Assembly: GCA_002633005.1 (NCBI GenBank)
Contig: NMRA01000709.1
Span: forward strand, 1-44,872
Direction: 5' to 3'
DNA from: Phoronis australis
Lineage: Eukaryota; Animalia; Phoronida
DNA length: 44,872 nt
Shown in pieces: positions 225-38,700 of the stretch; positions within the stretch are counted from its first letter, which is position 1, and each line of letters begins with the position of its first letter. The notes below the pieces were generated by a model. The model worked only from the letters and a program-made list of their open reading frames with translations. It was not told where the DNA came from and searched no databases. The translations under genes and the position numbers were made by a program.

Positions 225-3200
225 GGTCCAAGTGCGAAGAAGAAGAAGAAATTAGATAATGACTCACTTAAAGTATCCGAGACATCGGTTCCATCTAGAC
301 GAAGTTCACGTCACAAACGAATTAGGGGTGAAAAAGAGGTCAAAGTCTCTTCCAAACAAACTCTCCGAGATTTCAAGCTACAGGTAATGACCTGAACACA
401 AGTCTTTAAAACAACATCTTTTGTCATGGAATGGCTGAAATCATGTTTTAGCATTATCTAGTTCTCAGGCATGAAAGCAGTCTATTCCCTAACCTGTGAA
501 CAGATTTGTTACGTTCGGAATGTAAGTGTTGGCACATATGCTGGCCAACTTAGTATGCCCAGTCCTGTAAAATACCTTGTGTGTCTGTTCTTACTAAGCT
601 CTCTCATCTCGTCTAATGTTGGTCGGAACAAGTTGAAGTGACCGTGAACATTTATGTGCTCTTCTGGATAATGATAATAGCTGACTAGAGATAACTTTTC
701 AAGCTTACAAAGTGTCCTGCTGAAGATTTTGGGCAGTGTTTTGTCCATATCATGAGGTTCTGTTTCACTGCCTGCTTCAGTGTGGTTCAAGACAAAATTT
801 GGTGTTTCGACAATCACAATCCCTGAAATTGGGAACCAGCATTTTGTGGTTATATCTGTCCAGTAGATTATTGCTTTCTGCCAGTTTCTCTTTGCTATAA
901 GCCTCTGGCACTTTGATGAGGCTTAATTGCTCTTAGACAATCGTGTAAATCATGACTCGAAATGAATTGTTGTTTATTTTCGAGTGCCCAAGATTATCAA
1001 TCTTTACTCGAGATTCGACACGAAAACCTACCAATGACGTGCCACCCTTCGAATAAACTTGGAAACTTTACACTGCTTGGTTGGTTTTCCTGGTTGGTTT
1101 TCCTGGTTGGATTGTCTCAGGACCTGTTGTACATAATTCTCTTTGTGCAGCTTATGAAAGAATTTGGATGTCCTCCAATGGACCAACACATCATGATAGA
1201 TAATGTGGAGTTGGATGGGGACAAGGAAACTCTGGGTAGTCTCAAAATCATGCCAGAAACAATCATCTATTTAAAGGTAAGTTCAAGGCTTGGAATTTTC
1301 CGCGGAAACGCTTATTTCCGCTTTTTTCAAATGTTCTGTCCTCGCATTTTATTGTATTTCCGCGTAAAAAAAAATCGGATTTGATATAAATTTTCCGCGG
1401 CAAATTGGCAACTTCCTTTCTTACCGCGGCGTTGCCGACGACGTTCACCTCGAAAAGCGGAAGTTGCTCTTTATGTTTCGGGGGAACGTAAATTGTCAAC
1501 ATTGCCAGGGCATCTGGGATAGCGTGGTGGGATTTTCAATGGCGTCTCGTGTGATTGTAAACCGCGGTGACAAATACTACGGCTCTGCTGCCAAACATGT
1601 GCGGGGGTGGGAGCGGACGGACGAGCTAAAAAGACGCAGACACATCCTAGTGATGGTGGTAACGTTTTTTTTTAGTCCTCCCGATTTTTGTCGGCGCAAG
1701 GTTCGTGTCGACTATTTCAAGGCTGGGTAGCGCGTATGTTTTGGGCCGTAAAAGTTTCCGCGTTTTTTGTCTTTGGTCATTCCAAGCCCTGTAAGTTACT
1801 CTTTGGGTGTTCACAGACTGATATGACAAGCGACCTCGTGTAACTTGTCATCACATAACTTGTTATAAGTCATAAATTTTTCTAGGTCTAGGTACACGAC
1901 CAGTCATTTACATTGTAAAAGTTTGTGATTAAGTTTTCGTTTTCCCTTAACTCAAAAGCAGAATCTCTGACATTCACATACAAATATTTTGCATAAGTCG
2001 TCAACAAAGTACTTAATATGCTGTCATGCACCTTATATTTTGCATAAGTCGTCAACAAAGTACTTAATATGCTGATCATGACACCTTGAGTGCATGTATC
2101 TGTAGCACTCATGGTAACAAGGAAAATTTTGTAAAAAAAAATGGCAGCTCAATTATTTTACATATAAACGCTCGTGCTTACTTGCATGGTTTGCAGTGTT
2201 GTTTTTTATTCAAAGTTTAATAATAGTCATGACAGTAACCCTTTACAGGGGAATTAGTTTTGAAATATAAATCATGCCGAAAATAACCTTTTATCAAATT
2301 ATTCATTCTGATCAGAAATGATGATGTGGAAATTTATGCACCCGGCTACCATTGCTATGATAGTACATGTATATTGCACTCAAGTTGTCAAAATTATGAC
2401 TTATAAATTAGGTGTAACTTGGATAAGTCATGGTTTTTTCAGTTAAGTGAGGTTGCTTGTATTTGCTGCAAACAAAAGAGACATTTGTAGATAACCATTT
2501 AAAATCAGCAAATTGATTGTTCTCTGCTGTGTTTACCTGTTGGTGAGATATCGCCTGACTTACTAAGTTTCATGAAAGTTGTGGAAATTGTGAAGGAAAA
2601 AATTGCAAGTCGCCTGATAACTGACTGAACGTTTCAGGTCCCAAGGTTTCCAATGCTAAAATGTCTATCAAATGTGTTTGATAACTTCTGTTAGTTATTT
2701 TGATGAGACAGAGGAAGCCATCATATTGACAGACTCCTACTGGTATCTTGTGTTTTACATTATCTCTGCTTGACAGAGATAAAACTATCAATGTTTATCT
2801 GCTGTGTGTATTCTCAGTTTAATACTAACAGTTTATGCTTATCATACGTACACACTGTTCACCCTTTAGGTTGATGAGCCGGCGACTGAGGGTATACTTC
2901 TTGAGGATGTAGCTCAAGGTAGGTGTCTTGTGTAAGCAAGGGGGCGTTNNNNNGGGGGCGTTGACCACACACTCCTCTATGGCAAAAGTTTCAAGCAACA
3001 AATTTGAACAGAGTTGATGTTCTGTGTACTGAAGTGCACGTTCAACAAATTGGAGGACATTTAAAGTGGAAATTGCAGGCTAATTACTTATCTCTGTGAT
3101 TGCTTGGCCAAATTAGTAGGAAACACAACATACAACGATTATGTGAATATGAAGTAGCTTGAAAATTGCCAAACGTTTTTAAAAATAAGTTTTGTGGTGA

Positions 3201-4088
3201 AAATAATTCTTCACAAATCATTGAAACGTGTCCAGTAAGTATGGTGAGGTGATGCTGGGTAATAGCGCTGCATGATGCAGGCTGCGTGAGCCCACTAAGT
3301 GTGTTATTAGTACAAACATCACCTATTTTCAGACTTTTGTTTTCACATTACACATGGTCAATGAATATGCTGCACTTAGTTTTGCATAGATTATGTTAAA
3401 ATAGGAGCATTGTCGTTTAGTTCCTGCTATAGTTAGGAGCATGCAACTACATTTCTTTAAAGTGTCTGATGGGCGAGACAATCGGAGCAGAGGCTTTCAA
3501 ATCGCACAAGCTTGAACCATTTTAATGCCTTTAATGTAAATTAAAGACGAAACCTCGTAACAAAGACCTCCAGCTCAACCAACTGCCACTGCTATGCAAA
3601 ACCTCAAAAGTCTACTATTCTCGTAATGCAAGTTAAAATTGTCTGTTGACCACGTTGGGTTATTAGGCTTATACCATTCATTGACCCAATGGTACATGAT
3701 CCTTTTTACTTGAACTTTATCTCTGACTCTTTTGTGATTTGCTTTCTGATGGTCGTTGTTTCCTGTCTGGTTTTGCCTGCTGTACTCGCTGCTTCCATAC
3801 ACTGCTTCCAAAACTGTGTTTTTATACTTCAACAAAAATTTTGAAAGCTATCGAACAATTTTCAACAACTAGGATTTGCTTGTGGTTTTCTTCCATAACT
3901 GCAGCTGTACTGGACTACAGTACTTCAATAAATTTTGTCAATATACTTGAATACTACCTGAGTGTAGAAAGGATCAGTTTTATTTGCTGAATAATGAGAT
4001 TACATTTTTGACATTTTATTTTCCAGCCAGTTGTCCTGAGGAAGGCTTCAAAGGTACGGGACTGCTGGGTACCATGGCTAGACTGTGA
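225..4088 (+). CDS. USP48: Ubiquitin carboxyl-terminal hydrolase 48, last four coding exons (C-terminal ubiquitin-like domain); 5' part outside window
   Basis: Exons 225-383, 1151-1276, 2870-2918 and 4027-4088 have GT-AG junctions with compatible phases. Translation: ...RRSSRHKRIRGEKEVKVSSKQTLRDFKLQ|LMKEFGCPPMDQHIMIDNVELDGDKETLGSLKIMPETIIYLK|VDEPATEGILLEDVAQ|ASCPEEGFKGTGLLGTMARL*. This matches the recalled USP48 C-terminus (RRS.RHR..RGEK...QTL...DEP...PEEGFKGTGL). Confidence 0.95.
1284..1791. mobile_element. Non-autonomous DNA transposon (MITE, hAT-like CAGGG terminus), 508 bp
   Basis: Terminal inverted repeats CAAGGCTTGGAAT (1284-1296) and ATTCCAAGCCCTG (1779-1791) with 1 mismatch. Flanking direct repeat TAAGTT at 1278-1283 and 1792-1797. 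The interior is CpG-rich, unlike the surrounding intron. Confidence 0.8.
1984..2074. repeat. Short tandem duplication, 51-bp period
   Basis: ATATTTTGCATAAGTCGTCAACAAAGTACTTAATATGCTG occurs twice. Confidence 0.9.
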
Positions 4089-6083
4089 CTTAAGAAAGGC
4101 CTGACAATTATGCTGCTTCGGTTTTACGATACGAGATTTGTTGGTGAACAGTTGTCGTTCATCGACTGATTGACAGACCAATGTGACCAGTTTCTTGCAC
4201 TGTCTTCTTAACAGGTTTTATCTCTCTCTGCAGGCTGAAGTTTAGATTAGTTTGAATTGTGGGTTTCAAACGATTTACGTACTTTAACCTTGGTCAGTAT
4301 GTGTTTATTATTGACTATGTTGTGCATACTTGAATTAGTATGTGAATGAGAACAGCTGGTAATGAGTTTATGCGTTTGTTTGTGTGTATGTGTGTGTGTC
4401 TTTGCTTATTGTTTGAAAGTATGTGTTGAATTTTTTGATGAAGGTTTGGATTTGTTAATCTTTCAAAAGACTAAAGTGTATTGTCTAAGCAATTTTTTCT
4501 GTAGTGTATATTTTTGTAGCAGGTACTTTTAAACTAGTTGTGTGTTTTTCCAGCAGATTGCACACTGGTGAAGCTCTGAGGGTTAATGAATTGTTCAGGA
4601 GTTATGTTCTATTTATTATTCAGTGACTGTTATGCCTCATATACTGTTACATGCTTTGTCATACCAAGGCAATTAATCTTGGCGGGATCTCAAAAACAGG
4701 GAAAATCCAAGTCGACCAACTTGTACAATTTAGGTAAGAATCCTGTCATCTGTGTGACCTGCAAGGCCTATTTTTGGCCAGCGTTGCCAGTTTCCAGCTG
4801 TCGCCAGCCAGTTTCATCTTGGTGGTAGAAGTGGGCTCAGATGTTCAGAGAATGAGTCCTGCGGGACTTGGTGTTATAGATAAACACAGCTTGTGATCTT
4901 TAATGTTATTTATTCAGTGCTGCAGTAAAGTGCTATCAGTACATATATTTGGTTGGTACATTGTCTGTTTTGTGTTTTCTTTTGTTTTTGCAAATTTATG
5001 AATTGAACTGTGTCATTGTGACTTTCTCGTCCATACTGACTGGTTGTTAAATTATTGTTGTGTATAATACGGTTGTGTTATGTGACCTGTGGCATGAAAC
5101 AGTCCCAAATAGGGACTCAGTTAAGTTCCCTCAGTCTACTTAGTATTTGTGGATTAAAATTTTGTGAAAACACCGATTGTACTTTCTTATAATGTTTTAA
5201 TTTCCTTACTAAGACACTTTTTGGCTTTGATACGAATCGAGAGTGAACTCTTCCTTAAATTCTCAATATTATTGGAAACAAGTAGGGATATTTCCATGCA
5301 ACATCCTCAATTTAAGTTTTTAGTACCTGTTTATTTTCATTGAATTAAGGGCTCGGTTTTTACATTATTAGAAAATATTATTAGTTGAAGAGGACATAAT
5401 ATTAAAGATAAAATGATAATATTACATTTGTGAGTAAAGACAAATAATTATGCAAATGGTTTAGGGACTGTTTCAATGCAACTGGGCAAAGATGTCTTGC
5501 TTGCATTCAAATTGCTGTAACAAGGAAGTGTTTCACAAACTCTGCTTTGGTTGAAGATGAAATGACAGTAGATGACTTGATGACTTGAGGGCGTGAATCG
5601 AGTTAGACCAATATTTGGGAAATGTCTTAGTTTTGACTCAGGAACCAATGTATTGTTTAAGCATTTTATCAACACAAGCAGCACTCAAATGCTTATTTTG
5701 TTTACTTGCTTAATTTTCCATAGGCATACCTTTCACTCAAGTTGCTGTAATATCTAACTAAGTGTTTAATGTCAACCGCAGAACACTTTTTATCAAGTCA
5801 TTAAATGTGAAGCGTGACCATTTGATTTTAAACTTTGTATAATTACTTGTTTCTGGTTTTCCAAACCCAAAAGGAATTATTTTACAATTTAGTCTTGTCA
5901 ACCATTACCCTATATAGAGACATTTATAGCAAACTAAATATAAAAATAAAATGGTGAATCAATAATTTTCATTTTTGGTTCCTGGTTTTGAACTGACAAT
6001 CCTATACAGACTTGAACAATACTGAAACCAAGAAATTCATGCAATTTAGTCTGTTATTGCAGTCGAGGCCTCTTTAATGTTTG

Positions 6084-9000
6084 TCATACTGTAAATACTT
6101 CCGGTTTTGCATAGAGCAAATTGAAAACATGACAAAGATGAGTGGGTTGTGAAAATGTCACTTTGTGTGTTTTTAGTTCTATGTGAAGAATTATATCTGC
6201 TTGTGAGTCGGCGATTCGAAGAACATGATAAAGTATTCCCGTTGACTGGTCTATTCCATTCAGAACTGTGCCACCGTAATAGTTTTCAAATATTCCTGCT
6301 TGCGTCGCTTGCACCAAAGGTGTTATTTCTCCGTTTTGGGGATTGACTTCGACTAAATACCAAGCAGGATACTTGTTGCCATATTTCCCAGGAGACATTG
6401 TAAGAAGTTGTCCTGAAAGTAGAAATTCAAAATTGTAACAAGCGTAGTGTGTAAACTACGAAGTTAATAATAAAAACATTTTTGTTTTTAAATAGATTGT
6501 TTTTATTATGTAGCTTTCAAAGAGCTATAAACCTACATATTACGTACTTCAAAGAAGCGAAATTTTCATTTAGATCACTCACTGCTATATAAATGAGACA
6601 ACCCTACGCTAACATTTGGGGTTTTGTTACCCCAACGTCTAAGCGAGCTTAAGCCGGGACAGTCAGACTCGCCCGTCACAATTCATTCATAAATTAATGC
6701 TTTTGGCTTAGCCGCGATGCTGAAGAAAACCATTTCGCTCATTTCTCTAATAATGCAAAGACGGCTATTGTTTACTTTTCAATTTTAAAAACAGTCATTT
6801 GGTCGTTGTCATTACTTATTGTTCATTTTTGGCTTTAAAACTGTACGTAAATGTGTTGGTTTACGACCGTAATTATCTCGTCCAACACGTTCACCCAAGC
6901 CCACGATTAGCTCACTTCAATTAAATTGTGAGGGCTTTTGACGTGCCGAGGAATTCAATGGATAATCTGTGGTTAACAGCGCACGCTTTCTCGTCCTGGT
7001 GCAAGTCCTGTTAGTGCAAGATTTGAGTAAAAGGTCTCAACATGTTCCCCATTCATCCGAGAAGTGATTTGTGGGTTTTAGTTGCAAAGCACTATTGGTC
7101 GATTTTTCCTGGAGACCATGCTCGGCGACTAAGTAAAATCACCCGCCGTGGTCGACACGTCTATAAGCCTAATCTTGAGTATTAACAAGCTGAGAGTTCT
7201 ACGAAGACCTGAAACTACCCCTAGTTTGCCCAAGGGACAATATGAGACTAACTTCTTAACGATAAAAAGTGGCCACAATCATTTTTTGTGATGAGAGGCT
7301 TGTGCCAGCGTTTTTTATTTAAACTACGCACTATAACAAAATCACTGTCATCTTTTGCCTAGTAACTCCGATTTAGAAACGAGTTCTGGACTTGAGAAGA
7401 ACTGCCAGGTTAAAATGGTTTCGTACAGTGACAGTGAGCTACTGTCCTGTCGGTGAGGTACTTTCCTGACAGTGAGATACCTTCCTTACAGTGCGGTACT
7501 GTCCTGACAGTGAGGTACTGCACTGACAGTCAGGTACTGGTCTGACAGTCAGGTACTGGTCTGATAGTGAGGTGCTGGTCTGACTTTTAGGTACTGTCCT
7601 GACAGTGAGGTACTGGCCTGACAGTGACCGTCAGGTTCTGGCCTGACAGCGACAGTCGGGTAATGGCCTGACAGTGACAGTCAGATACTGGCCTGACAGT
7701 CAGATCGTCTTAGCGCAGTCGCCGCTGCAGTATGGCCGACACTGGCCATTCCAGTTATAGTATTGTTGTATCCAATTTGTGTGACTGATGTACGTTAACT
7801 CACCTGTCTTTTTATAAACTAAAATTGAGGACACCGAGAATTTTGACTGGTCGAGCTGTACGTATCGGGATGCCCTACAAAACGTAATTGTCAATGGAAA
7901 ATTATTCTGTACGACTGAATGTAGAGGCACTTCTATCTCTAGTTAAGATTTTATCATCTCTAATTGAATGTTCCGCCTTGAGTGTCCCACATTTATTGCA
8001 TGGCATTATTTGCAACCTGAAACGCTTTCGGTTACACGCACAAGTTGTTCAAAATTCTAAGTCCAATTGCGACAGCAATTCACGGCTCTGGCTGACAGTG
8101 TCACGTTGATGGAACTGTTTAATTGGTACACAGCATACTAGCTAGTGCTTCCAGCCCTCGTGCCAATCTGGCTGGATCACGGCAGCTGAACAAATGTTTT
8201 CCTTCACCGTTTTAGGACTCTTTCAAAGTGCCATTTGGCCACTTTCTTACTTCTCATGCAAACGACTGGATTGTGTGGCGGAGATACGAAAAAAAAAACA
8301 AGTTACAACATTGCCTAATGTTTCTCGAATTCAGGATTATATTAATTAGGTATGGATGTTGACTTGATGTACAGTGATGATGTGAAAGCCAGGTCTCTCG
8401 TGAGTTGACACTTCATTTCTTACCCTGACGGGAGATCAGTGGTGTACAGCCTGGTGTCGGAATGTTGCAAATCATCATCATGTGCCATCAACGCATACAT
8501 AGACCCGTTTTTCGTGTAGTAATTTGTAGCTGACCAAAGGAAGCTTACGTAAGGAGGACTTAGATTTACAGAAGCTGACGTAAGGACCTCACCGTCGAAC
8601 ATCATCCACGTGTACAGCAGAGTAGTGGATGAACCTGTCGAAAATTACAAGCCAGCAATAAGTTTCGACTCCAAATGCACTTTTGTTCTAAATAACAGTA
8701 AATGTGAAATTGCAGGGAACTTGAAGTTGTGAATGTCTTCTTTCTTTTCAGTATTAAAATCTCACGTAAGAATATGCTTGCATTGTAACAACGTTTGTCA
8801 CGATTTAAAAATTTGATGTTTTCTATTTTTCTTTGGTTATGTATTAGAAGCATGAGCTGGTCAAAATAATTGCGCATTTAAAGAAGTAACTACATCCAAA
8901 ATATGTGTAGATGCGAAAATACTACATTAGCGATCATTGAGCAACTATTCTTTGACTAGAGATTTTTAAGCAGCCCATTTCCTGCTTGTTCTCACTATTT

Positions 9001-11831
9001 TCCTCCCTACGGTAGGTGGATTAGAGAAAGCTCCAATTTACGACGTGGCATTTTTGGAGCCATTTGCTGCGCCAGTACCTGTTACATTTATCTGTGTCAT
9101 GACGTAGTTGGAGTTTCCGATACGATCCAGGAACATTGTACGCGCGCTTTTATAGAACAACATAGGACCATACGTAACCAAACTTCCATTAAACGTTCCG
9201 ATCATGTATCTGTTGTGTGATGTTTCTTCCAACGACTGAGAATGTTCATGCGTAATGAAAATCGTAATATTCCTGTCTTTATCATGCATCGCTACTGGAA
9301 CCAACACAAACGACGGAATCTTCGGCTGTGAACAACACTCATTCTGAGTCGATAGAGTTGCAGTGTGTGAGAACACTGCTCCATTAGGAACTCCGAATGG
9401 AAGAGTGGAAAGTTTGCTGACGGTCCCAGAATGTAAATCTACGGAGACGTAGTCAGACTGCGATGATTTCAAAGGGTTAAATGACAGTCCATACAGTTTT
9501 CCAACTGGGAACCCATGCTCTTTAGACTTCTTAAAGTGGTTGTACACCTGGAACTTGAGGTAGTCATGCGCGCGCGCCTTTTCCTCGTTTCTGTGTTTCT
9601 CGTTGGGAAGTCTTTCAAACGGTAACAACGTTGGTGTCTTGTTAATTCGAATATCCGCGCACTGGTAAAATATGTTTCCTGGTCCTGGTTTGTGAGTGTG
9701 ATACGTAAGCTGCACAATGCAATGTGAGCAGTCTGTATCGGGCAAATCCTAGGAATAATAATGTAGTTAGGGTAATGAGAATATCATACAATTTGAATTA
9801 TTCGCTTGAGTGATACACAATGTATTGTCTTGTAGCTTTACTTTACCAAAACATGCACGACCATAGTACTGAAAAGTTTGTAAAAGTAAAAAAAATAAGT
9901 AAAACATTTTCTTTTATTGTTTTTCAAATGGTAGTGTCCGTGACAAATCACTGGCTAAAAACCCAGGTGAACAAGAACAGATGAAACTTCACATGGAAGT
10001 CCCCGCCCCTCGATGGCAACCTTGCCTGTGTTCAACGCGCATCGTTTGGTGATGCAAAGGTTTACACTAGTAGTTGTCGAAAGATTGTTAAGGAAAAGTT
10101 GTTGAACAATTAGCAAGTGAGTTACATGGCAAAGAATCTGTGATGTCATTACATTCTTATTCAAATATCTTTAAAAACGAACCCATAAAATTTCGAATTC
10201 ATTAAAAGAAAAGAATTTTCGATGCAAACTAAGTGTTCGTTAATCAAACTGGAGGAAATATCAGGGCTTCGATTGTCATTTCTTAAGAGCAGGCTCTACT
10301 AGTTGTTTTGTCAAGTGATGTTACTTTGAACGGCGAGCATGGTCTTGGGAATAATAAACTGTCAGTTATTTGCCGCAAATCCAGAAATTACTTCTCATCT
10401 GAGTAAGGAACATCGATCGATGGCAGTTTTCGTAACGCTAATTGGTTGGCTTCATGCACTCGAACAGTGTTTATGTACAGCGGCCTTAAGTCGGCTGAAT
10501 TTTGAAAAACAGTAGATTGATGTGGGATTTATTAAAAACTTTATAGGTTCATTTTTGTGTCGAACATGTGTAATACTCAACCACAAGTATTGTGTAGTTT
10601 TTAGCGTTGTCTCGACGAAAGAAGTTCTCGTCCAAAATCGTAGCTAGGGTAGTCCAGTTACTCATTCGAACTGAAGTTGCGAGTGCGACTACCATGTAAC
10701 CTGTGGAATAAAACTAATATCATCGGTCTCTAGGTCACAGGGTCGACTGCTCTTAATAGCGAGTCTTACTATTTCACACTCGCACTACACTAAACAGAAA
10801 ACGAACACTAGCTCTTGATTTATTCTCATAATCAACAAATTTTGCTTTCTAGAACTACCATTGAACCAAGTATTCGCCAATAATTGGAAAAAATGTTTTG
10901 AACCATTACTTTATGCCTTAGTGTCCTATGGCTGATTATGCGACAACAGGCATGTGACGTGTAACTATTACAGTGCCAGTGTGTATTGAGATTATTGCCA
11001 ATAAAGGTCATCTCATGATGGCTGCAGCCGAGCTTGAGAGCTTAATTCATGATTTTTCCTTGCCCATTCACTGACGGAATATGTTAAGGGTTGCAAATTT
11101 AAAAGAGATGTTGTACGAATTTGTAAATCCTAGTGGTTTGAAGTTGCCCATACTAAACCTAACTACATTGAGAATTAACATTCTGTCATTTACCTGGAAA
11201 GCCAGAGTTGTAGTAGTTCAAATTTTGCTGGAACTTAATGAATGCCTGTCGTCCTCCAATGTAGGTCACATGAGGTGATTCTATCGGTTCTCCCCCACAT
11301 GGCGGGTCATTGCGGGCACAACTGGCACTTCCTGGCTAATGGATCAAATGCTTTACATCAAATCACTTCTAAACTCGTTTCAAAATTCTATATATCACAC
11401 ATGTGACATTCAGTTGCACAACCATGACTATACTACACACGGCTGAGCTATTGGTATAGTTCATGCCTGGCAAATTCAAAATAAAATGCACTGAAAATCC
11501 AAATGTCATGTAGCGGTATTTTTAATGTGTCCCGAAGAGACCGACATGCAGGTCGACTTACGCGCGGCACCCGGCGCTGGGCCAACCTGAACCGGCCGCT
11601 CTGGTCGGCCGAACTCAGTGGTATCACTGAGTACATTGTATACTCGCCGGGTGTTCTCGTTGCTATGTCGTTGTAATTTCAGTTTGTTTTTTGTTCAAAA
11701 TTAATAGGTAAATAACCAACCTTTGAAATATCTAGAATGCCCCTTTGAGGAGGAATCACGAGACAAACATGAGAAACACTTGACCGCATTTGTGCGTGAA
11801 GAAGAGACAAGAGAATCAATTCAATCCGCAT
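6084..11831 (-). CDS. Secreted 550-aa protein: signal peptide + N-terminal-His LPMO-like/copper-binding-like domain + beta-rich (probable beta-propeller) C-terminal domain
   Basis: Exons 11831-11721, 11335-11194, 10700-10582, 9748-9079, 8634-8424, 7874-7804 and 6412-6084 are all GT-AG with consistent phases; 1653 nt = 550 aa + stop. The N-terminus reads MRIELILLSLLHAQMRSSVS/HVCLVIPPQRGILDISKPGSASCARNDPPCGG...FQQNLNYY...DLPDTDCSHCIVQLTYHTHKPGPGNIFYQCADIRI. Many N-glycosylation sequons are present (NWT, NYT, NKT, NIT, NGS, NVT, NLS). The gene model is solid; the domain assignment is by motif recall. Confidence 0.85.
6596..7025 (+). repeat. Old dispersed repeat, copy A (homologous to 14294-14764 on the opposite strand)
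   Basis: Collinear shared blocks: CCTACGCTAACATTTGGGGTTTT, AATTAATGCT.TTGGCTTAG, TGAAGAAAACC, TTTACTTTTCAATTTTA, TGTTGGTTTACGACCG, GTGCCGAGGA, TCCTGTTAG. Confidence 0.85.
7426..7704. repeat. Degenerate 19-bp minisatellite (consensus GACAGTGAGGTACTG[G/T]CCT), about 14 units
   Basis: Repeating CTGACAGT[G/C]AGGTACTG units in the last intron of the minus-strand gene. Confidence 0.93.
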
Positions 11832-11896
11832 TGCTTCCGTGTTTGTATGGTCACAAAATCACGTGCAGTATCACGTGACAACAACAGATAAACAAT
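11832..11896. promoter_or_regulatory. Candidate bidirectional promoter with two E-boxes
   Basis: Only 65 nt separate the two divergent ATGs. CACGTG lies at 11860-11865 and TCACGTGAC (CLEAR/USF-type) at 11871-11879. Confidence 0.7.
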
Positions 11897-14800
11897 ATGG
11901 CGAACCATGGAAAAAAGAAAATTTGGGTACTTGTAAAACGTTTGGATTTGGGTGGTAAGTTTTGTATATTGACGCATATTTTTGAAGCGAATACAATGTT
12001 TGCTTATATCATTGTTACATTCGAGTATTCAGGTGTACACAAAAGGCACACTTACAAATTGTTTGCATACTGGGTTTGACTAATGTCTCACTGTATGAAA
12101 ACCTGTCAGTGTCACTGTTATGGCTGTCAAGCTACCAGTCTTTTGCCTTAGTTGGTCATCTACGAAGCGCCTAAAGGTTCTTAAACGAGGACCTTTCTCA
12201 AGGTACCTAAACTACACGGTTAACAGACTCATAAACACGGCCCACGGATGCATGAACACGACTCAAGGATCTGCAAACACCGTCCACTGACTCACAAACA
12301 CGGGAACGGACTCACAAAACACGATCCATTCACCCAAATACACGAGACACGGACTCATATTCAAGAGGAAACAGGGTTAATGCACCGCCAAACACGGGTC
12401 ACGGACTCATCGACTTCCTGGGTCAGCTGACATCTACACTTTGTCGGTAAACTGTGTTTGGCGGTCCGTTAACCGTGTTTCTTCGTGAATGTGAGTCCGT
12501 GTCCCGTGTATTTGGGTGAATGGATCATGTTTTGTGAGTCCGTTCCTGTGCTTTTGAGTCCGTGGACGGTGTTTGCAGGTCTGTGAGCCGTGTTCATGCG
12601 TCCGTGGGCCGTGTTTATGAGTCCGTTAACCGTGTAGTTTAGGTACCTTGATTCTGTGCGTTGAAATATGCTTATTCCATGCGCAATTTTGCTTAATCAA
12701 CACATAGTATTGCTAAATCATCGTGCTAAATTAGTTCTTAAGGGATTTTCATCCTGCTCTTATTCAAAGGGCACTAGTATATTGGCTACTTGTTCAACGC
12801 GCACTTTAAATGAGTTCATATGGTCCAATCATGTCTGTGCTCTTCAATTCCTTGTGGCAAAAGAATTCACATGTGTGCACGGCCAGTTTTGAAGATTACT
12901 CAAGTGAGCATGTAAATTATGGCACCCGGTAACTTTGTATTGTCTTTGATTGCCAGTGGACACAACAAATAATTAATTCAGCACATTGATTAAGCTGCTA
13001 GCGCTAATCTGTGAGGTGACCAGTTGAAATTGTGCAATTAGGAAGCAAGGTGACGTAAAGAACAAACATTGCGCGCCCCCCGCCAGTCAACGTCTTCTCG
13101 GCGCCCCGCTCAGTCAACAAAGAATCGTTGGTGCATCCCTGGTCGGTAGCTGTGTGACCCCCCCCCTCCCCTGGGCTAATTCTCTTCAAATCTTTCATGA
13201 AAAAATAAAGAACTAAAATTTCACTTGTGTCTCAAATTAATGAGATTTTACCGTAAGTATATGGAGACCAAGTCGCACTGAAAATTCATGCACAAGAACT
13301 TCTGCTGGTTCGCTACAAAAAGTTGGCAAAGTTACCCCCACTGGGACAATGTAACCAAGCCAATGCTCTATCCATCTTCATGGAAAAAGAATAATGTGGA
13401 AATAGTGTTGTGCATTAGAAAAACATGGGACTTGTGAAATAGATGGCTGTTTTCCATAGAACAGCATAAACCAGTTTAGTTATAACGTGAATCAACTCTA
13501 CCTTGATCTTATTTGTTGCCCTTACTTTAGTTTGTACCTTTCAGTTTTGTGCTGTGTTGTAATATATTGTTGCATTTTATTATATTGTATTATGTTTTAC
13601 GATAAATCATTACTAAAAAAATCAATTGATCAATTATGTCTTTCACTGATTCTTGAAAGGTTTCAATTAAGTCCTGTATGACTTTGGTTTGGTTTTGCAA
13701 AAATCACAAACTCAAGTGAAGCAGACTATGAAATCTGTTCAGTCCCTCATGTTGTCATACATATAATTAGGAAAGCTAACTTGCAATAACCAGGACAATT
13801 ACTGTTCACTTTTTGTTTTATTTCAGAAGACAAAGAAGCCTTGAAAGAAGTCCAGTTCCAGACAGCCCTTTCATCTACTGATTTTAACAGCACCCTCAGA
13901 TCAGAATGTTCCATTCCAGAAAACGTGATCCTTAAGGTAGTACATGCTTGACTCTCGTTATCGTAGAAACACTAAGTTGGCGAGATGAGAATGAATTGTT
14001 CATTTTTTACTCACTAGACCAATTTTGTTTCCTTAGTCATTGCTCTGCATTGGAAGAACTGACACTGCTTGACTGCTGAATCAAGACGAATAGATGAGCA
14101 ACATGGAACTGGTTCCACTGGAATTTAAAAACTTTGAAACGTAAATAATTGGCATACACATTTTGGTACTGTGCAAAAACTAGATTGTCTTTTGAAAGAG
14201 CTCATTGTCTGCAATACGTGCCTTATAGGAGCTGTATTGTAGTTGTATTCTGATCATTTGTGTTTCTAGAGGCCTGGTATTTGTTACATTAGACAAATCT
14301 TAAGCTAACAGGATTTGCACACAAATGGACAATAATGCATGCACTGTTCACCCCAGAGTATCCAGGGAAGTCCTCGGCACATCAAAGACTTGATGACGCA
14401 GCCACGGATTGAAATGAGCTAGTCGCTATTCATGGGCTTGGCTAAATGTGCTGGATGATATGAATGCGGTCGTAAACCAACATCCCTGTTTAGCGTATGA
14501 GTTTCAATGACAAAAAAATTAAGCATTAATTAAGGCTAATGACCAACTTGTGTGTAAAATTGAAAAGTAAATAGTAGCAGTCGTTGAATTTTTAAAATTG
14601 ATGCATTATAAGAGAAGTTAGTGAAAAGGTTTTCTTCAGGATCCTTGCTAAGCCAAGAGCATTAATTTTTTAATGGATTAGGAGTGGTTGGTCACAGACT
14701 GGCTTGGGCTTGCTTAGACATTGGGGGTAATAAAACCCCAAATGTTAGCGTAGGAGTTGTGTCCTGTATGAAAAATGCATGTCAATAAGCTATCCCAATA

Positions 14801-32700: not shown

Positions 32701-35700
32701 CAAATCTACACCCGTTACTACAATATACTATAGTGTACAGCTTTCAAAGATCCCTCATTATATATTGTAAAGAGGTTCAACTGTCATACAAATTTATTAA
32801 CAAGTCACAGATCACTACCCAGTAAAAGGAGGGCTTGCTAAAAACAAAGTGGTCATTGCAGACAAAATTATTCCACTGTAACAAATAAACCAGTCAGCTT
32901 TTATAAAATTAATATATCACTATGCAAATTTCAATGAGTGTTAGCAGGACTGATGAGAACCATGTGAAGAGCAAGCCTCAGAATAATCAAATCCAGCATT
33001 AGACAAGTAAAATCTGTATCATGTGTTAATTAGCCAACAAAACTATGAAAGACTATTCAAATGTTGAAATAGTATACACCACAATTGTCACATGATTTGC
33101 ATCAGACTTATCCATTCCTGACAGTTCAAACTCATTGCAATTCATATCTGATTCAGTTCCTTGGAAAAATTTGTATAGCAAGTATTAAGCAAGAAAGTGA
33201 AACAACTTACAAACTGGTGTCCACAAAATCGCTCTCATCCAACTGATTCTCTTCATCTTTGTTTTCAATGCTGTATTTAGTCAATAAACTCAGAGTCTGA
33301 AAGTCAAAGGTGGAATTCAAAACACAAATTTCAACTAAACGCAGAACAAACAAATTTACTACAAACTGACTTAGAATGCCAGTATTAGTCATCACCATAC
33401 TTAACATGGTCATAGTCATAATCAAGATATTTTTTAATCAGAAACGAATGAAACAAGCGGACCCATAAACTGTAGTTGTCTGGATTAATGCCCAGAAGGC
33501 TTAGGGTGGCTATGAACTCGCCTTGTCACAAAACCCCATTTTTATAAAGACCACTTTCCATTATGAAATTGTTCTCAATTTGTATCTTAGTCAAAATTGA
33601 TGCAATTTTTGGCCTTGAAAAGAATTGACAGGTTTTTATTACAGTAACTGTTCACCAGGCTGTATAAGTTGACTTGTCACAGCATGTTATTTCATGTGCC
33701 AAGCATAGTCTTGTGAAATGACAAACCAATATTATCACCTCTCATCCAAATGAAGGCAAGTTGAGACCAATTTTACAAGGTGGTCAAAATCAAGTTTGTT
33801 TATTCGACAAAACACGGGTTTACTTATTCTAAATTGGGAAATAATCCTATCAGCGACTAGAGTTTAAACTGAGTACGGGCATTCAAAAATTCAAAAAAAT
33901 TGTTGACAGGAATAAATTATTCACCCATCAAACAGATGATTCATCCAACCCCATGCCTACAGCATTGTTCACAAAAAGTATTACTTACTTCTTAGAATGC
34001 GCACGAGCCCAAAGAACCATTTCAAGTCGTTTTAAATAAAAAGAAAGTAACTTTACCCACCCGAATGTGGCATGATTGCTGCTCAAATTGCCGTTATCAA
34101 ACACAAATCAAAAATCCGACTTTGACATTCTTTATGCTGATATCAAAATGCCAGAACTTACGAATTTCCGTGTCTTAGTCACGAACTGGGGCGTTGATGG
34201 CTTGCCAAGAACAGTCATAGCAGTGCCAGCATGCCATGTTTCATAAGACTTGTCATTGTCATCATCCTCATCATTCGTAGTCATGGCTGGTTTAACCGAT
34301 GATGCATGCCACGTCTGGTACGACTCATCCTCACCAGGTGGTGTCAGCATCAGGTCTGGTGGCTTGTTCCTCCTTTCCAATCCAGAAGAGCAGGACTGTT
34401 GCGCGGCAAGGACAGGTTTGTTGGAAAATGAAACTTTAGGCTTTGGTGATTGATCATTGTTCATCTTGTCTGTTTTTAGTTCCTTATCATAAACGTCATA
34501 ACTCGTGGATGGGCCCGTGACAACAAGAGAGTCCACCTCATCAAAGTAATTGGTGTTATCAATCATATTTTTATTCAAACTAGACTGAAGCATCATGCTT
34601 TGACGCCTTTCATCGCACTCAACGACTGGTTGAATTTCAGAAGGAGGAGCATCAGACGAGGATGGATTGTACATGTCATGTGACACAGGAGCCTCATAGT
34701 CGAGAATCGAGTCAACACTGACAAGCCTTTTAACAATATTTCTCATCTCAGCGATGCGCTCCTTCTGCCTAACCACTCCTCTAGCGTATCCAGGGCTCCC
34801 TTCAATCCTAGACTGTTTTCTGAGAGTTCGCGTTTTACGTGGCGGACCACGGGATTGCTCCGACACAGAGCGACCTAACGGTGGTGGGGTCAGTCTCCCA
34901 GCCTCCCATTCAGAATCTGTTGAGCTTTGGATTGAGGCGAACGCCTCCACGTTCTTTGATAGTCGAAACTGGACATTTTTACGTGGTGCACTCTCAACAG
35001 AGCGCCGTGGTGTCGTAGCAGGTGAGTCAACTACATCCTGAGACAAGGCTGGTTGAAGTAAAGGCAGACTTTCATCCAAACTCTGCCCATGCCCACTGTC
35101 CTTCGAACTCTGCTTGGTCGTCCTTCGCTCATTTCCATCACTCTCTGCATAGTTCCTCTCTGGGGCAGGACTAGACTGCGATGACTCAAACAAACCACTA
35201 TCATCCATCAGCTGTTTTTCATTCCATGGATCACCACTCGCAACAAGGTCACTGTTTTTTGTACCTATTTCACTACGATCAACCATCGCCTGGCCACAGA
35301 CCACCTCCACATCAGGTTTTCCACCACCAGACTTCATCCAGTTGAGCAAAGTACAATTTTCTGTTAAGTCAGCATCAGGGTAGTCCAGCTTACTGTGTTC
35401 ACGCATGAAGTCTAATCTATTGGTATCAGTTGTATTAGTTCCATCACTACCAAGAGTTTCCATTAACAATGCTTCCCGTTTCTTGTCTACAACACCTTGA
35501 AGCGTTGGTCCCATGTCTGTTTCATTACAACCTCCAGAAAGTTCCTTCAGCTCTGAATTAAAATTATTTTTAGTAAGACCAGCAAAGAATGCATTGCTAT
35601 CCTCGACACTAATTTTACTCTCACTAAAACCATTTTGATTATCACTGCCTGTTAAATGCCTCGACTTTTCTCCTGGAAAGGTTTCATGGTCACTCCTCCC

Positions 35701-38700
35701 TTCTTCCTTGTCCAATTTAGAGTCATCACCGGTTTTTGCAAGACCAGCAAAGAACACGTTTTGATTCTTGTCACAATTTTCATTTTCACTGTAATTTTTC
35801 AGGTTACTTTCAACGATATTCCCAACATAAATGTCTCCACTATTGTTCCTTTCAGTCACACCTAACCCAGACACAGAACCATCCATTTCAAGGCTAGCAC
35901 TCAACACATTGTGACAAACATCCTTGACACTGAAGTCTTGTGGATCATACTGGTTATCATCACTTTGTTCTACATTCCCCGCTACACCATCACCAGTCTG
36001 TTGAATGACGTGCTCACAATTCACAAGCATGTCTGCCTCCTCATCCGAACTCGAAGAGCTCAGTTGAGAGCCATATTCGTCAGAGAAAAAACGCGCCAGT
36101 GGTGGAACATGAAGAGAGTCTCGCCTCACCACTAAATCTTTAACCGAGCTTTTCTTTTTGGAGCCAGTTCGCGAAAGTCCAACTGTGTCATCGAACGGAG
36201 GGGTATCTACAACATCAACAGAGGGCTCAAACACCGAGTCATCCAGCAGTGACTCGTCTGCAATACACTGAATCTGATTCTCTTCTGACACTACAGTAAC
36301 CTCATACTTTCCAAGTTTTACTGATTCTTGAGGAACATCATGATTGTTGTTCTCGGTGTTTTCAACACTCTCTTGATTTGTTGTTGAATCAAATCTTTCA
36401 CCATCACCTTGACCACTCTCCACCAAAGGGACAATGCCATTCTCATTGTCACGGATACTTAAACGAACATTCTTGGTCATCTCCAAGATGGATTCAATTT
36501 CTTTTGTTGACTTCTGAATGGTGTCATCATTCTGTACAACATTCGATAAAATGTCTGACACTGGCTTTTGCAAAACAAAAGCATCCATCTGAAATAAAAA
36601 CAAGAGCAACGCGGAGCGTTGAAATGCGCCCACAATTGCACCGCATACGGTATCCTTCTAGGGTTGTTTATTGGTACCATCAAGTGGCCAGTAGAGGGCA
36701 TACTTTGCAAAATGGAAAGGCATGGTCATTGTCTCCTCAATAGCCGCGGCTAGGGGCAAAATGTGAGTAATCTTCATAATACAAGCACATCCTATACACC
36801 AGTTGCTTAAAGCACCACAGAAACATAGAATTAAAAACAAATTTACCAACATACGAGATTAGCACAGCATTAGAATGCCAGAAACAAATTTCTACTTGGA
36901 AACTTTTCCTTCACAGTCACGAAGTAACACAAAGTATACACCTGAAGACCTATGAAAATACAGAGGTCAATGTAAAATAGTAAAATTGCCACTAGAGGCA
37001 AATACTAAAATTGGCACTAGAGGCATACCGGTAATCAGAATCATCCTAAAGTCGTCATCGTCCGTTGTCAACATCACATAAATACACTTGCTAAATTTAG
37101 TAAAGATCCTGCGAACAGGATACAGCCATGGGTGCAAAAAAACAAAACTGCCACTAGGAGGCGCCACAGAAGTCCAAATCGTCTGAAAATCATTGTCAGC
37201 TGTCTTCCTTATAGTAAGCACATACACGCCAATTTTCACAATCATCCTTTGAGCGGTTTGGTTGATAGAGGGGTGGACGCAAAAATACAGACTCGAAAAC
37301 AGTAAAAATGGCCACTAGGTGGCGCAAACTACGTTGAATCCATCTGAAAACAGTAGGATAGCGTCATCTCACTAATAGGTGCCTACATACCAAATTTCAT
37401 GAAAATCCGTTCAATACTTTTGAAGATACAAAGGTAAGCGTAAAAAACTAAAATTGCCACTAGGGGGCACACCGGTAGTCGGATCCGACCAAAAGTCGTC
37501 ATCTTCCGTTGTTAACATCATATAAATATACTTACACAATTTGTAAAGATCCTGCGAACGGTTTAGGAGATACAGCCATAGGCGCAAAAAAACAAAACTG
37601 CCACTAGGAGGCGCCACAGTAGTCGAAATCGTCGGAAAATCATCGTCAACCATCCTCTACATAGTAAGCATATACATGCCAATTTTCACAATCATCCTTT
37701 GAGCGGTTTGGTTGATAGAGGGGTGGACGCACAAAAACAGACTCGAAAACACTAAAAATGGCCACTAGGTGGCGCAAACTATGTCGAATCCATCTGAAAA
37801 CGGGAGGATAGCGTCATCTCACTAATAGGTGCCTACATACCAAATTTCATGAAAATCCAATAAGGACTTGTGAAGATACAAAGGTAAGCGTAAAAAACTA
37901 AAATTGCCACTAGGGGGCACACCGGTAGTAGGATCCGTCCGAAAGTTCGCACATGCTGTCCCATTCATGAATGGAACATATGTGCCAAATTTCATGAACG
38001 TATGTCAAAGGGTTTTGGAGATAGAGCAGCGGACGCCGGACGGACGCCGCCCGGACGGACGGACGGACGGACAGAGATGACGGCATAATGCGTCCACATA
38101 TAAATATGTGGGCGCATAAAAAATGTAATTTGTGGTATAACTTCCGGAACTTATGGTAAATAGCTTTCCTGGCGTTGGTCCTTAAATTCGGGGATTGAGG
38201 GCGGATTAGTTCCCATGAAAAAATTTGTTACCCTCTGACAGTGTTCATAGACAGTAAAAGGAGCCAACCGGCTCTCAAATTTTGGGAAAATTATATTAAA
38301 GTAAGCTCCACAACTTCTGTTTGTAATTTTTTGCCCCTTTATTCACCTGGATGAATGACAATGTCCATCATCTAATCGTTATCAGATGCCCTTTCATTAA
38401 AAGTAGCTGCTTAATCATACAAAATCATCTAGTATATCTAGAACATCATTTTGACTATTTCTGTTAACAGATGTTTGGAGCATTAGATGACTTGAATGAA
38501 TCACTATTGACAGTGAAAACTTGCTAATAACTCCCATATCCACTTTTATTCAAGTTAAGCCCTCCTCCGTATTAGTGCAGCAATACTGCTACTACTAAAA
38601 ACACCTGTTTACTGGTAAGTTCCAACATCATTTAAACTTCGACCAAAGGTTACTTTAAGCTTTCTCACTGTCCAAGACTCCATTAAACCACTGACACATC

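Follow-up and report, generated by a model that had tools for sequence, protein, structure and literature searches.

We analysed a 44,872-nucleotide stretch of the genome of the phoronid Phoronis australis (NCBI GenBank assembly GCA_002633005.1, contig NMRA01000709.1, positions 1 to 44,872; hereafter the window), in which a minus-strand gene of seven exons, with GT-AG introns throughout, encodes an open frame of 550 residues. A first-pass annotation of this DNA had read the product as a secreted animal protein in which a domain like that of the lytic polysaccharide monooxygenases (LPMOs), beginning with His, is fused to a probable β-propeller, and had proposed that it binds copper or oxidises glycans. 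The architecture held up and the activity did not: the results suggest that the gene is a maintained pseudo-LPMO member of its family, unlikely to be a copper enzyme because Tyr78 replaces the likely second copper-binding His. All the motifs quoted in that annotation are present, with His21 following directly on S-V-S at the end of a 20-residue leader, and the list of open reading frames (ORFs) of at least 60 residues does, as it warned, miss exons 1 to 3. The gene is laid out as follows.

11721 to 11831, minus strand: exon 1, with the start Met, the 20-residue leader (11831-11772), His21 (11771-11769) and the H-x-C-x3-P-x-Q-R-G motif.
11194 to 11335, minus strand: exon 2, with Cys43, Cys50, the Q-Q-N-x-N motif and Tyr78.
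11213 to 11215, minus strand: the Tyr78 codon; this is probably the second position of the histidine brace, and it is His in 33 of the 33 relatives with a residue there.
10582 to 10700, minus strand: exon 3, 119 bases, with Val88 (10692-10690) in place of an invariant Asp.
9079 to 9748, minus strand: exon 4, with the last part of the His domain (C131, C134, Q137 and T139 in place of two invariant Arg, H141, H143, P147 in place of an invariant Glu, F151, C154), a predicted helical linker and the first propeller blades from about 9502.
8424 to 8634, minus strand: exon 5, propeller, with A-H-D-D (8485-8474) in place of G-N-E-N and Ser378 in place of an invariant Asn.
7804 to 7874, minus strand: exon 6, propeller, 71 bases.
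6084 to 6412, minus strand: exon 7, with the last propeller blades, the closing strand and the stop codon; it matches the family profile with an E-value of 8e-40.

The gene is transcribed and spliced. Summed over three raw-read RNA runs of one study, its six splice joints are spanned, in exon order, by 11 (the exon 1-2 joint, 11335/11721), 8, 15, 12, 16 and 17 reads on the expected strand, and three of the six joints are present in the contig set of a second RNA study. In a scan of the window all seven exons match the family profile (E-values 8e-40 to 3e-4), no other match falls below an E-value of 2.6, and there is no second copy within the window. The His domain covers residues 21-160, that is about 140 residues in the mature protein and not the roughly 160 first estimated, and the propeller runs, as had been suspected, over the C-terminal part, from about residue 207 to 544. 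The leader is atypically polar: over the ten positions that precede His21, its hydrophobicity is the lowest among 30 leaders compared, and cleavage could occur earlier than His21, for example after Ala13. Two short intronic stretches (6603-6894 and 10375-10412), where read depth is high on both strands and reads have loose ends, are interspersed repeats, and intron 6 carries a minisatellite (7429-7700) in which a 19-base unit, in about 10.5 copies, runs into a 25-base unit.

Homology across both domains assigns the gene to an unnamed His-brace/propeller family (P0001, P0013, P0050, P0011 and kin), with 25-35% overall identity between the studied protein and its relatives. These relatives, of about 520-570 residues, come from choanoflagellates (two species of Salpingoeca), Capsaspora, a sponge (Sycon), Trichoplax, echinoderms (Acanthaster, Asterias), lancelets (Branchiostoma), an annelid (Owenia) and many molluscs, and carry database labels such as uncharacterised, hypothetical or 'chitin-binding type-4 domain'. 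A HMMER search with exon 4 against 1.84 billion representatives gave 31 matches, one of which, P0030, was rejected as a spurious Cys-rich repeat, and a profile built from 16 of these sequences returned 37. In word-index searches, neither exon 4 nor exon 2 gave a match. A metagenome pattern scan yielded 123 matches, of which 26 loci were retained. Among these, the intronless ORFs L001, L003, L011 and L012 match both domains, and L002, L005-L010, L013 and L014 have the same His domain, with Asn for the loop His, joined to a C-terminal domain that contains Cys and differs from the propeller. Two spliced relatives (L019:850-4276 and L020:1979-3207) keep the second His, and their exon boundaries approximately match those of exons 1-4 of the studied gene in profile position. 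The description as an animal protein is thus right for the gene itself and wrong for the architecture, which also occurs in choanoflagellates, Capsaspora and intronless metagenome ORFs. Scans of prokaryote genomes (53 pattern matches) and viral contigs (83) gave no confirmed relatives, and plasmids only four chance matches, with patterns so narrow that absence from these sources does not follow.

In a tree of 30 rows, which leaves out 8 partial or redundant ones and roughly tracks the species tree, the studied gene lies among the bilaterians (support 96/94) and groups loosely with Owenia and molluscs (93/93). Its placement with the protists was weakly rejected (approximately unbiased test, p 0.027), long branches being involved. 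The family is, to judge from these sequences, an ancient one, inherited from before animals. It is also apparently unstudied, in agreement with the earlier remark that the architecture seemed uncharacterised: in the main texts of mostly open-access papers, nothing was found on an LPMO combining a β-propeller with an N-terminal histidine, no paper naming SCE4755 was found among mostly open-access papers, and the one paper that came up on LPMOs and copper in choanoflagellates and sponges was unrelated; no further title dealt with this family. The word 'propeller' does not occur in the available main text of a survey of LPMO C-terminal modules (PMC8615602).

Fold predictions were made for the mature protein of a scallop relative, P0013. 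The full model (predicted local distance difference test score, pLDDT, 86.7; predicted template modelling score, pTM, 0.87) comprises a β-sandwich (residues 1-139), a helix (156-170) and six blades (181-518) built from 24 strands, the C-terminus forming the closing strand; the high pTM suggests that the two domains are held in a fixed arrangement. Modelled alone (pLDDT 90.4), the His domain is structurally closest to TdAA15A (PDB 5MSZ; Z 12.9, root mean square deviation 3.0, 129 residues aligned, from residue 1) and next to LaX325 (PDB 6IBH; Z 11.2, root mean square deviation 3.1, 117 residues aligned), followed by AA13 (Z 10.6), AA11 (10.3), AA16 (10.0) and AA10 (9.9), and Foldseek concurs. 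Residues 178-519 match many six-bladed propellers of the kelch, YWTD, NHL and TolB types (Z 14-19); no propeller function can be transferred from them, because identity is 6-13% and no match stands clear of the rest. For the C-terminal part the Atlas gave only generic propeller-like clusters (0.89-0.91), and PDB sequence searches with the family profile and two members gave chance matches only. Comparison with LPMO, X325 and propeller structures, as the first-pass annotation had advised, therefore returned an LPMO-type sandwich and a six-bladed propeller on the P0013 model; carried over by homology, the fold of the studied copy is presumably the same.

Profiles of LPMO-related families point in the same direction, as had also been anticipated. 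At E ≤0.1, LPMO_10 (PF03067) matches 23 of 33 relatives, BIM1-like (PF20238) 16 of 33, and SCE4755 (NF043005) 31 of 33, with a best E-value among relatives of 2e-12 for the last. The intact relative P0016 scores 17.5, 24.2 and 39.8 bits, respectively, which is below all three cut-offs (23, 27 and 75 bits), and the distant metagenome ORFs L003 and L005 pass that of PF20238 (29.5 and 28 bits). The exon 4 piece of the studied gene alone gives weak matches to PF20238 (E 0.011, 16.6 bits) and NF043005 (E 0.0024, 17.9 bits); single exons gave no match to PF03067, for which four relatives have a precomputed match.

The candidate metal site was examined by counting columns in 37 relatives of at least 290 residues. 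His1, with which His21 aligns, is conserved, as was to be expected for a histidine brace, in 29 of the 31 relatives whose sequence covers that column (both exceptions are aberrant N-terminal models, and six sequences are truncated). In the P0013 model the His of Q-Q-N-x-N-H stands at the end of a strand, followed by a loop and then a Gly-led strand, a placement that we take to resemble that of the second His in the braces of AA10 and AA15. A further His, in an H-K-P-G-E loop, is present in 37/37 close relatives but in only 1/13 distant ORFs, and the Glu of that loop is retained. For this reason the loop His was set aside as a brace partner, and the Q-Q-N-x-N-H His is likely to pair with His1. 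Counting back from the aligned ends, Phe130 of the model falls on Tyr184 of TdAA15A, and Glu127 falls near the loop Asp ligand of LaX325, which we take to be residue 122; the loop that corresponds to His143 leads into the strand bearing the axial Phe. In intact relatives, signal cleavage would thus expose His1, and this residue and the Q-Q-N-x-N-H His would grip a single copper above the Phe, with the invariant loop Glu before the last strand as a putative close ligand, comparable to the loop Asp in X325/Bim1. For the family as a whole, copper handling seems slightly ahead of polysaccharide oxidation, because the domain is small and has the loop Glu, an LPMO-type enzyme being nearly as likely.

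It is this site that the Phoronis copy appears to have lost. About 17 reads in three runs span the Tyr78 codon, as does one contig of a fourth, and no other letter is listed there or elsewhere in exon 2 across the four RNA runs, in which an allele with fewer than three supporting reads per run would go unlisted. Sequencing error was rejected as an explanation, since reads from three runs and the contig carry the Tyr codon. Further near-invariant polar residues of the His domain are replaced, namely Asp88 (by Val), Gln114, Arg137 (by Gln), Arg139 (by Thr) and Glu147, the loop Glu of 37/37 relatives, which is Pro. His21, His143, Phe151 and the first-strand motif remain, as do the six cysteines, the glycines, the prolines and the aromatics of the domain, and at position 141 the copy has a His that is found in 0/37 relatives. 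In numbers, changes affect 6 of 19 near-invariant polar residues versus none of 19 near-invariant structural residues (Fisher p 0.02); four of the 35 scored relatives (two aberrant models having been excluded) show any change in these columns, and in three of the four it is confined to a single column. The propeller is changed at 6 of 14 near-invariant positions, the G-N-E-N motif included, and along its full length the copy is altered in 12 of 50 highly conserved columns, compared with 6 of 48 and 4 of 53 in two relatives with equally long branches. The loss of His78, Asp88, Gln114, Arg137, Arg139 and Glu147 together with G-N-E-N suggests that the two domains work as a unit, and the joint loss of the two Arg and the Asp of the sandwich and of the acidic propeller patch may reflect a domain interface or a site to which both contribute.

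The reading that we favour, with a probability of roughly 60%, is that the gene encodes a secreted pseudo-LPMO which keeps both folds and binds something without a copper brace, its likely role being non-catalytic binding or scaffolding outside the cell. The second His has changed to Tyr and the Glu to Pro, which would have removed the brace, and Asp88, Gln114, Arg137, Arg139 and the propeller patch have changed too, with the residues that build the His domain left in place. The data show the gene structure, its expression, the homology and the substitutions; secretion, the fold of the studied copy, the pairing with His1, loss of copper and a binding role are inferred from them. The gene appears to be maintained, because its frame is intact, its structural residues are kept and its differences lean synonymous. 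Its 550 codons contain no stop or frameshift despite about 65% divergence from every relative, and coding differences between individuals comprise 11 synonymous and 10 replacement codons, with a ratio of non-synonymous to synonymous polymorphism (pN/pS) of about 0.27. An apparent stop among the read differences was rejected, the two changes sharing one codon and turning Tyr into Trp.

Several points weigh against this reading. The synonymous excess (p about 0.003) comes from a simple count of sites, with no correction for transition bias, and pN/pS was obtained from 24 listed differences, 21 of them among the best 40 of 85 rows and 3 from another listing. The end branch of the gene is long (1.87 versus a median of 0.49), and both a frame-shifting skip of exon 3 and a contig that changes Lys144 speak against maintenance. 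The grouping into polar and structural residues was chosen after the alignment had been seen. The fold is that of P0013 and not of the studied protein, with which P0013 shares 31% identity over its length and 47% within the His domain, and the proposed brace pairing was deduced from residue position and conservation. The presence of the Q-Q-N-x-N-H His in 13/13 distant ORFs is a biased count, one fetch pattern containing that His. A metal-free protein need not have kept His21, His143 and Phe151, or have gained His141, and Tyr is itself a possible metal ligand.

The retained residues could instead form a re-wired metal site, in which His21 acts with Tyr78 and/or with His141 and His143 in a chemistry unlike that of the family, a proposal that we consider unlikely. 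It would account for the persistence of His21, Phe151 and the first-strand motif, for a His141 that no relative shares, and for the position of His143 in a loop leading into the axial-Phe strand. However, the loop His is missing in 12 of the 13 distant ORFs, the contig of one individual has a substitution at Lys144, the invariant neighbour of His143, and with the least hydrophobic leader of 30 His21 may stay unexposed. A wider version of this idea, which we regard as doubtful, is that the family represents an extracellular copper protein in two parts, so far undescribed and older than animals, with a brace domain docked on a propeller that holds the substrate or partner site, and that the Phoronis copy has rebuilt the site around His21, Tyr78, His141 and His143 as a brace variant with Tyr for His and its own chemistry.

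That the gene is a decaying duplicate, its function lost and its sequence drifting with an intact paralogue elsewhere in the genome, is improbable. The long end branch and the low read depth would fit such decay, as would the 5 reads that skip exon 3, versus 8 for the normal exon 2-3 joint, and the occurrence of more than one family copy in several molluscs. Against this stand the 550 uninterrupted codons, the retention of 19/19 structural invariants in the His domain, the synonymous excess on the simple site count and the lack of a second copy within the window. The function first proposed, that of an active copper protein with a histidine brace or of an enzyme oxidising glycans, is very unlikely for this gene: His does follow the leader, the P0013 model has the LPMO fold and relatives match LPMO_10 and BIM1-like in the proportions given above, but a brace needs two histidines according to the available text of PMC10952591 and PMC8615602, and the invariant candidate is Tyr here, a degenerate position that the first-pass annotation, implying an intact site, had overlooked, with the Glu, the Asp and two Arg gone as well.

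For studies of LPMO activity the studied gene is hence a poor choice and its family a better target. As a second, propeller-fused lineage extending from choanoflagellates to lancelets, the family may be used to test whether such animal sites cut polymers or move copper. The pseudo-LPMO from Phoronis would serve as a natural loss-of-site comparison, marking the residues that are lost as function changes.

The neighbourhood of the gene has features of its own. The last exons of an upstream gene lie on the plus strand at 225-4090; we take this gene to be USP48-like from its C-terminal ubiquitin-like region and ending motif, and Pfam gave no supporting match for USP48. At 5800-6432 the last exon of the studied gene has read coverage on both strands; a plus-strand transcript overlaps it there, and five molecules of one run begin at 6298; this transcript is probably a long 3′ untranslated region of the upstream gene. 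On the other side, transcription of a head-to-head neighbour on the plus strand (11879-11956) starts at about 11899. Some 50 bases separate this point from the 5′-most reads of the studied gene, and the neighbour has an ATG at 11897 and, after 11956, a likely donor site. A shared promoter is possible; the 20-residue piece of this neighbour has no Pfam match. Beyond it, at 12188-12645, two long arms in inverted orientation, which contain tandem units of 21 and 42 bases, resemble a small non-autonomous transposon. On the minus strand, 34132-36657 is occupied by an exon of 841 codons that belongs to a large gene; its product is acidic and of low complexity and has no convincing Pfam match, and an Rfam scan of the window gave no match.

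Among known systems, TdAA15A is the closest in structure. As far as the available text of PMC5823890 goes, it has in common with the family a His1 behind a signal peptide, a presumed one in the family, and an aromatic residue at the axial position, which is Tyr184 there and Phe in the family; it also has Ala89 two residues before His91. In the family the corresponding residue is Leu, Phe or Tyr in 33/33 relatives, and Leu in the studied copy. With six cysteines in about 140 residues, compared with ten in 195 for TdAA15A, and with an added propeller, the family is, as the first-pass annotation had supposed, distinct from AA15. The second brace His of AA15 has no equivalent in the studied copy, where the position, whose brace role we propose from sequence comparison, is Tyr78.

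The likeness to X325/Bim1, represented by LaX325, lies in similarly small size and in the second-best structural match. The available portions of PMC7529816 and PMC7924993 describe X325/Bim1 proteins as binding copper through the brace and an Asp on a Gly-rich loop and as not cleaving cellulose. That Asp may correspond to the invariant acidic residue of the family in the loop before its last strand, which is Glu and not Asp, and the studied copy has neither this residue nor the second His. The two groups also end differently, X325/Bim1 carrying a glycosylphosphatidylinositol anchor (PMC8615602, available text) and the family the closing strand of its propeller in the P0013 model. Their hosts differ as well, the family occurring in animals and protists; the available text of PMC10952591 lists the non-LPMO histidine-brace proteins of this fold as fungal and the animal ones as AA15.

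The bacterial, polysaccharide-monooxygenase-like SCE4755 family matches more of the relatives than LPMO_10 or BIM1-like does and also supplies the second-ranked look-alikes in the Atlas; it is itself hypothetical, and the score of P0016 lies far below its cut-off. As a precedent for a pseudo-LPMO, Frandsen et al. in 2019 reportedly described an AA9 member that keeps the LPMO fold without a complete histidine brace, His1 itself having been replaced. That protein belongs to another family, and the route appears to differ: the Phoronis copy keeps His1 and loses the second His.

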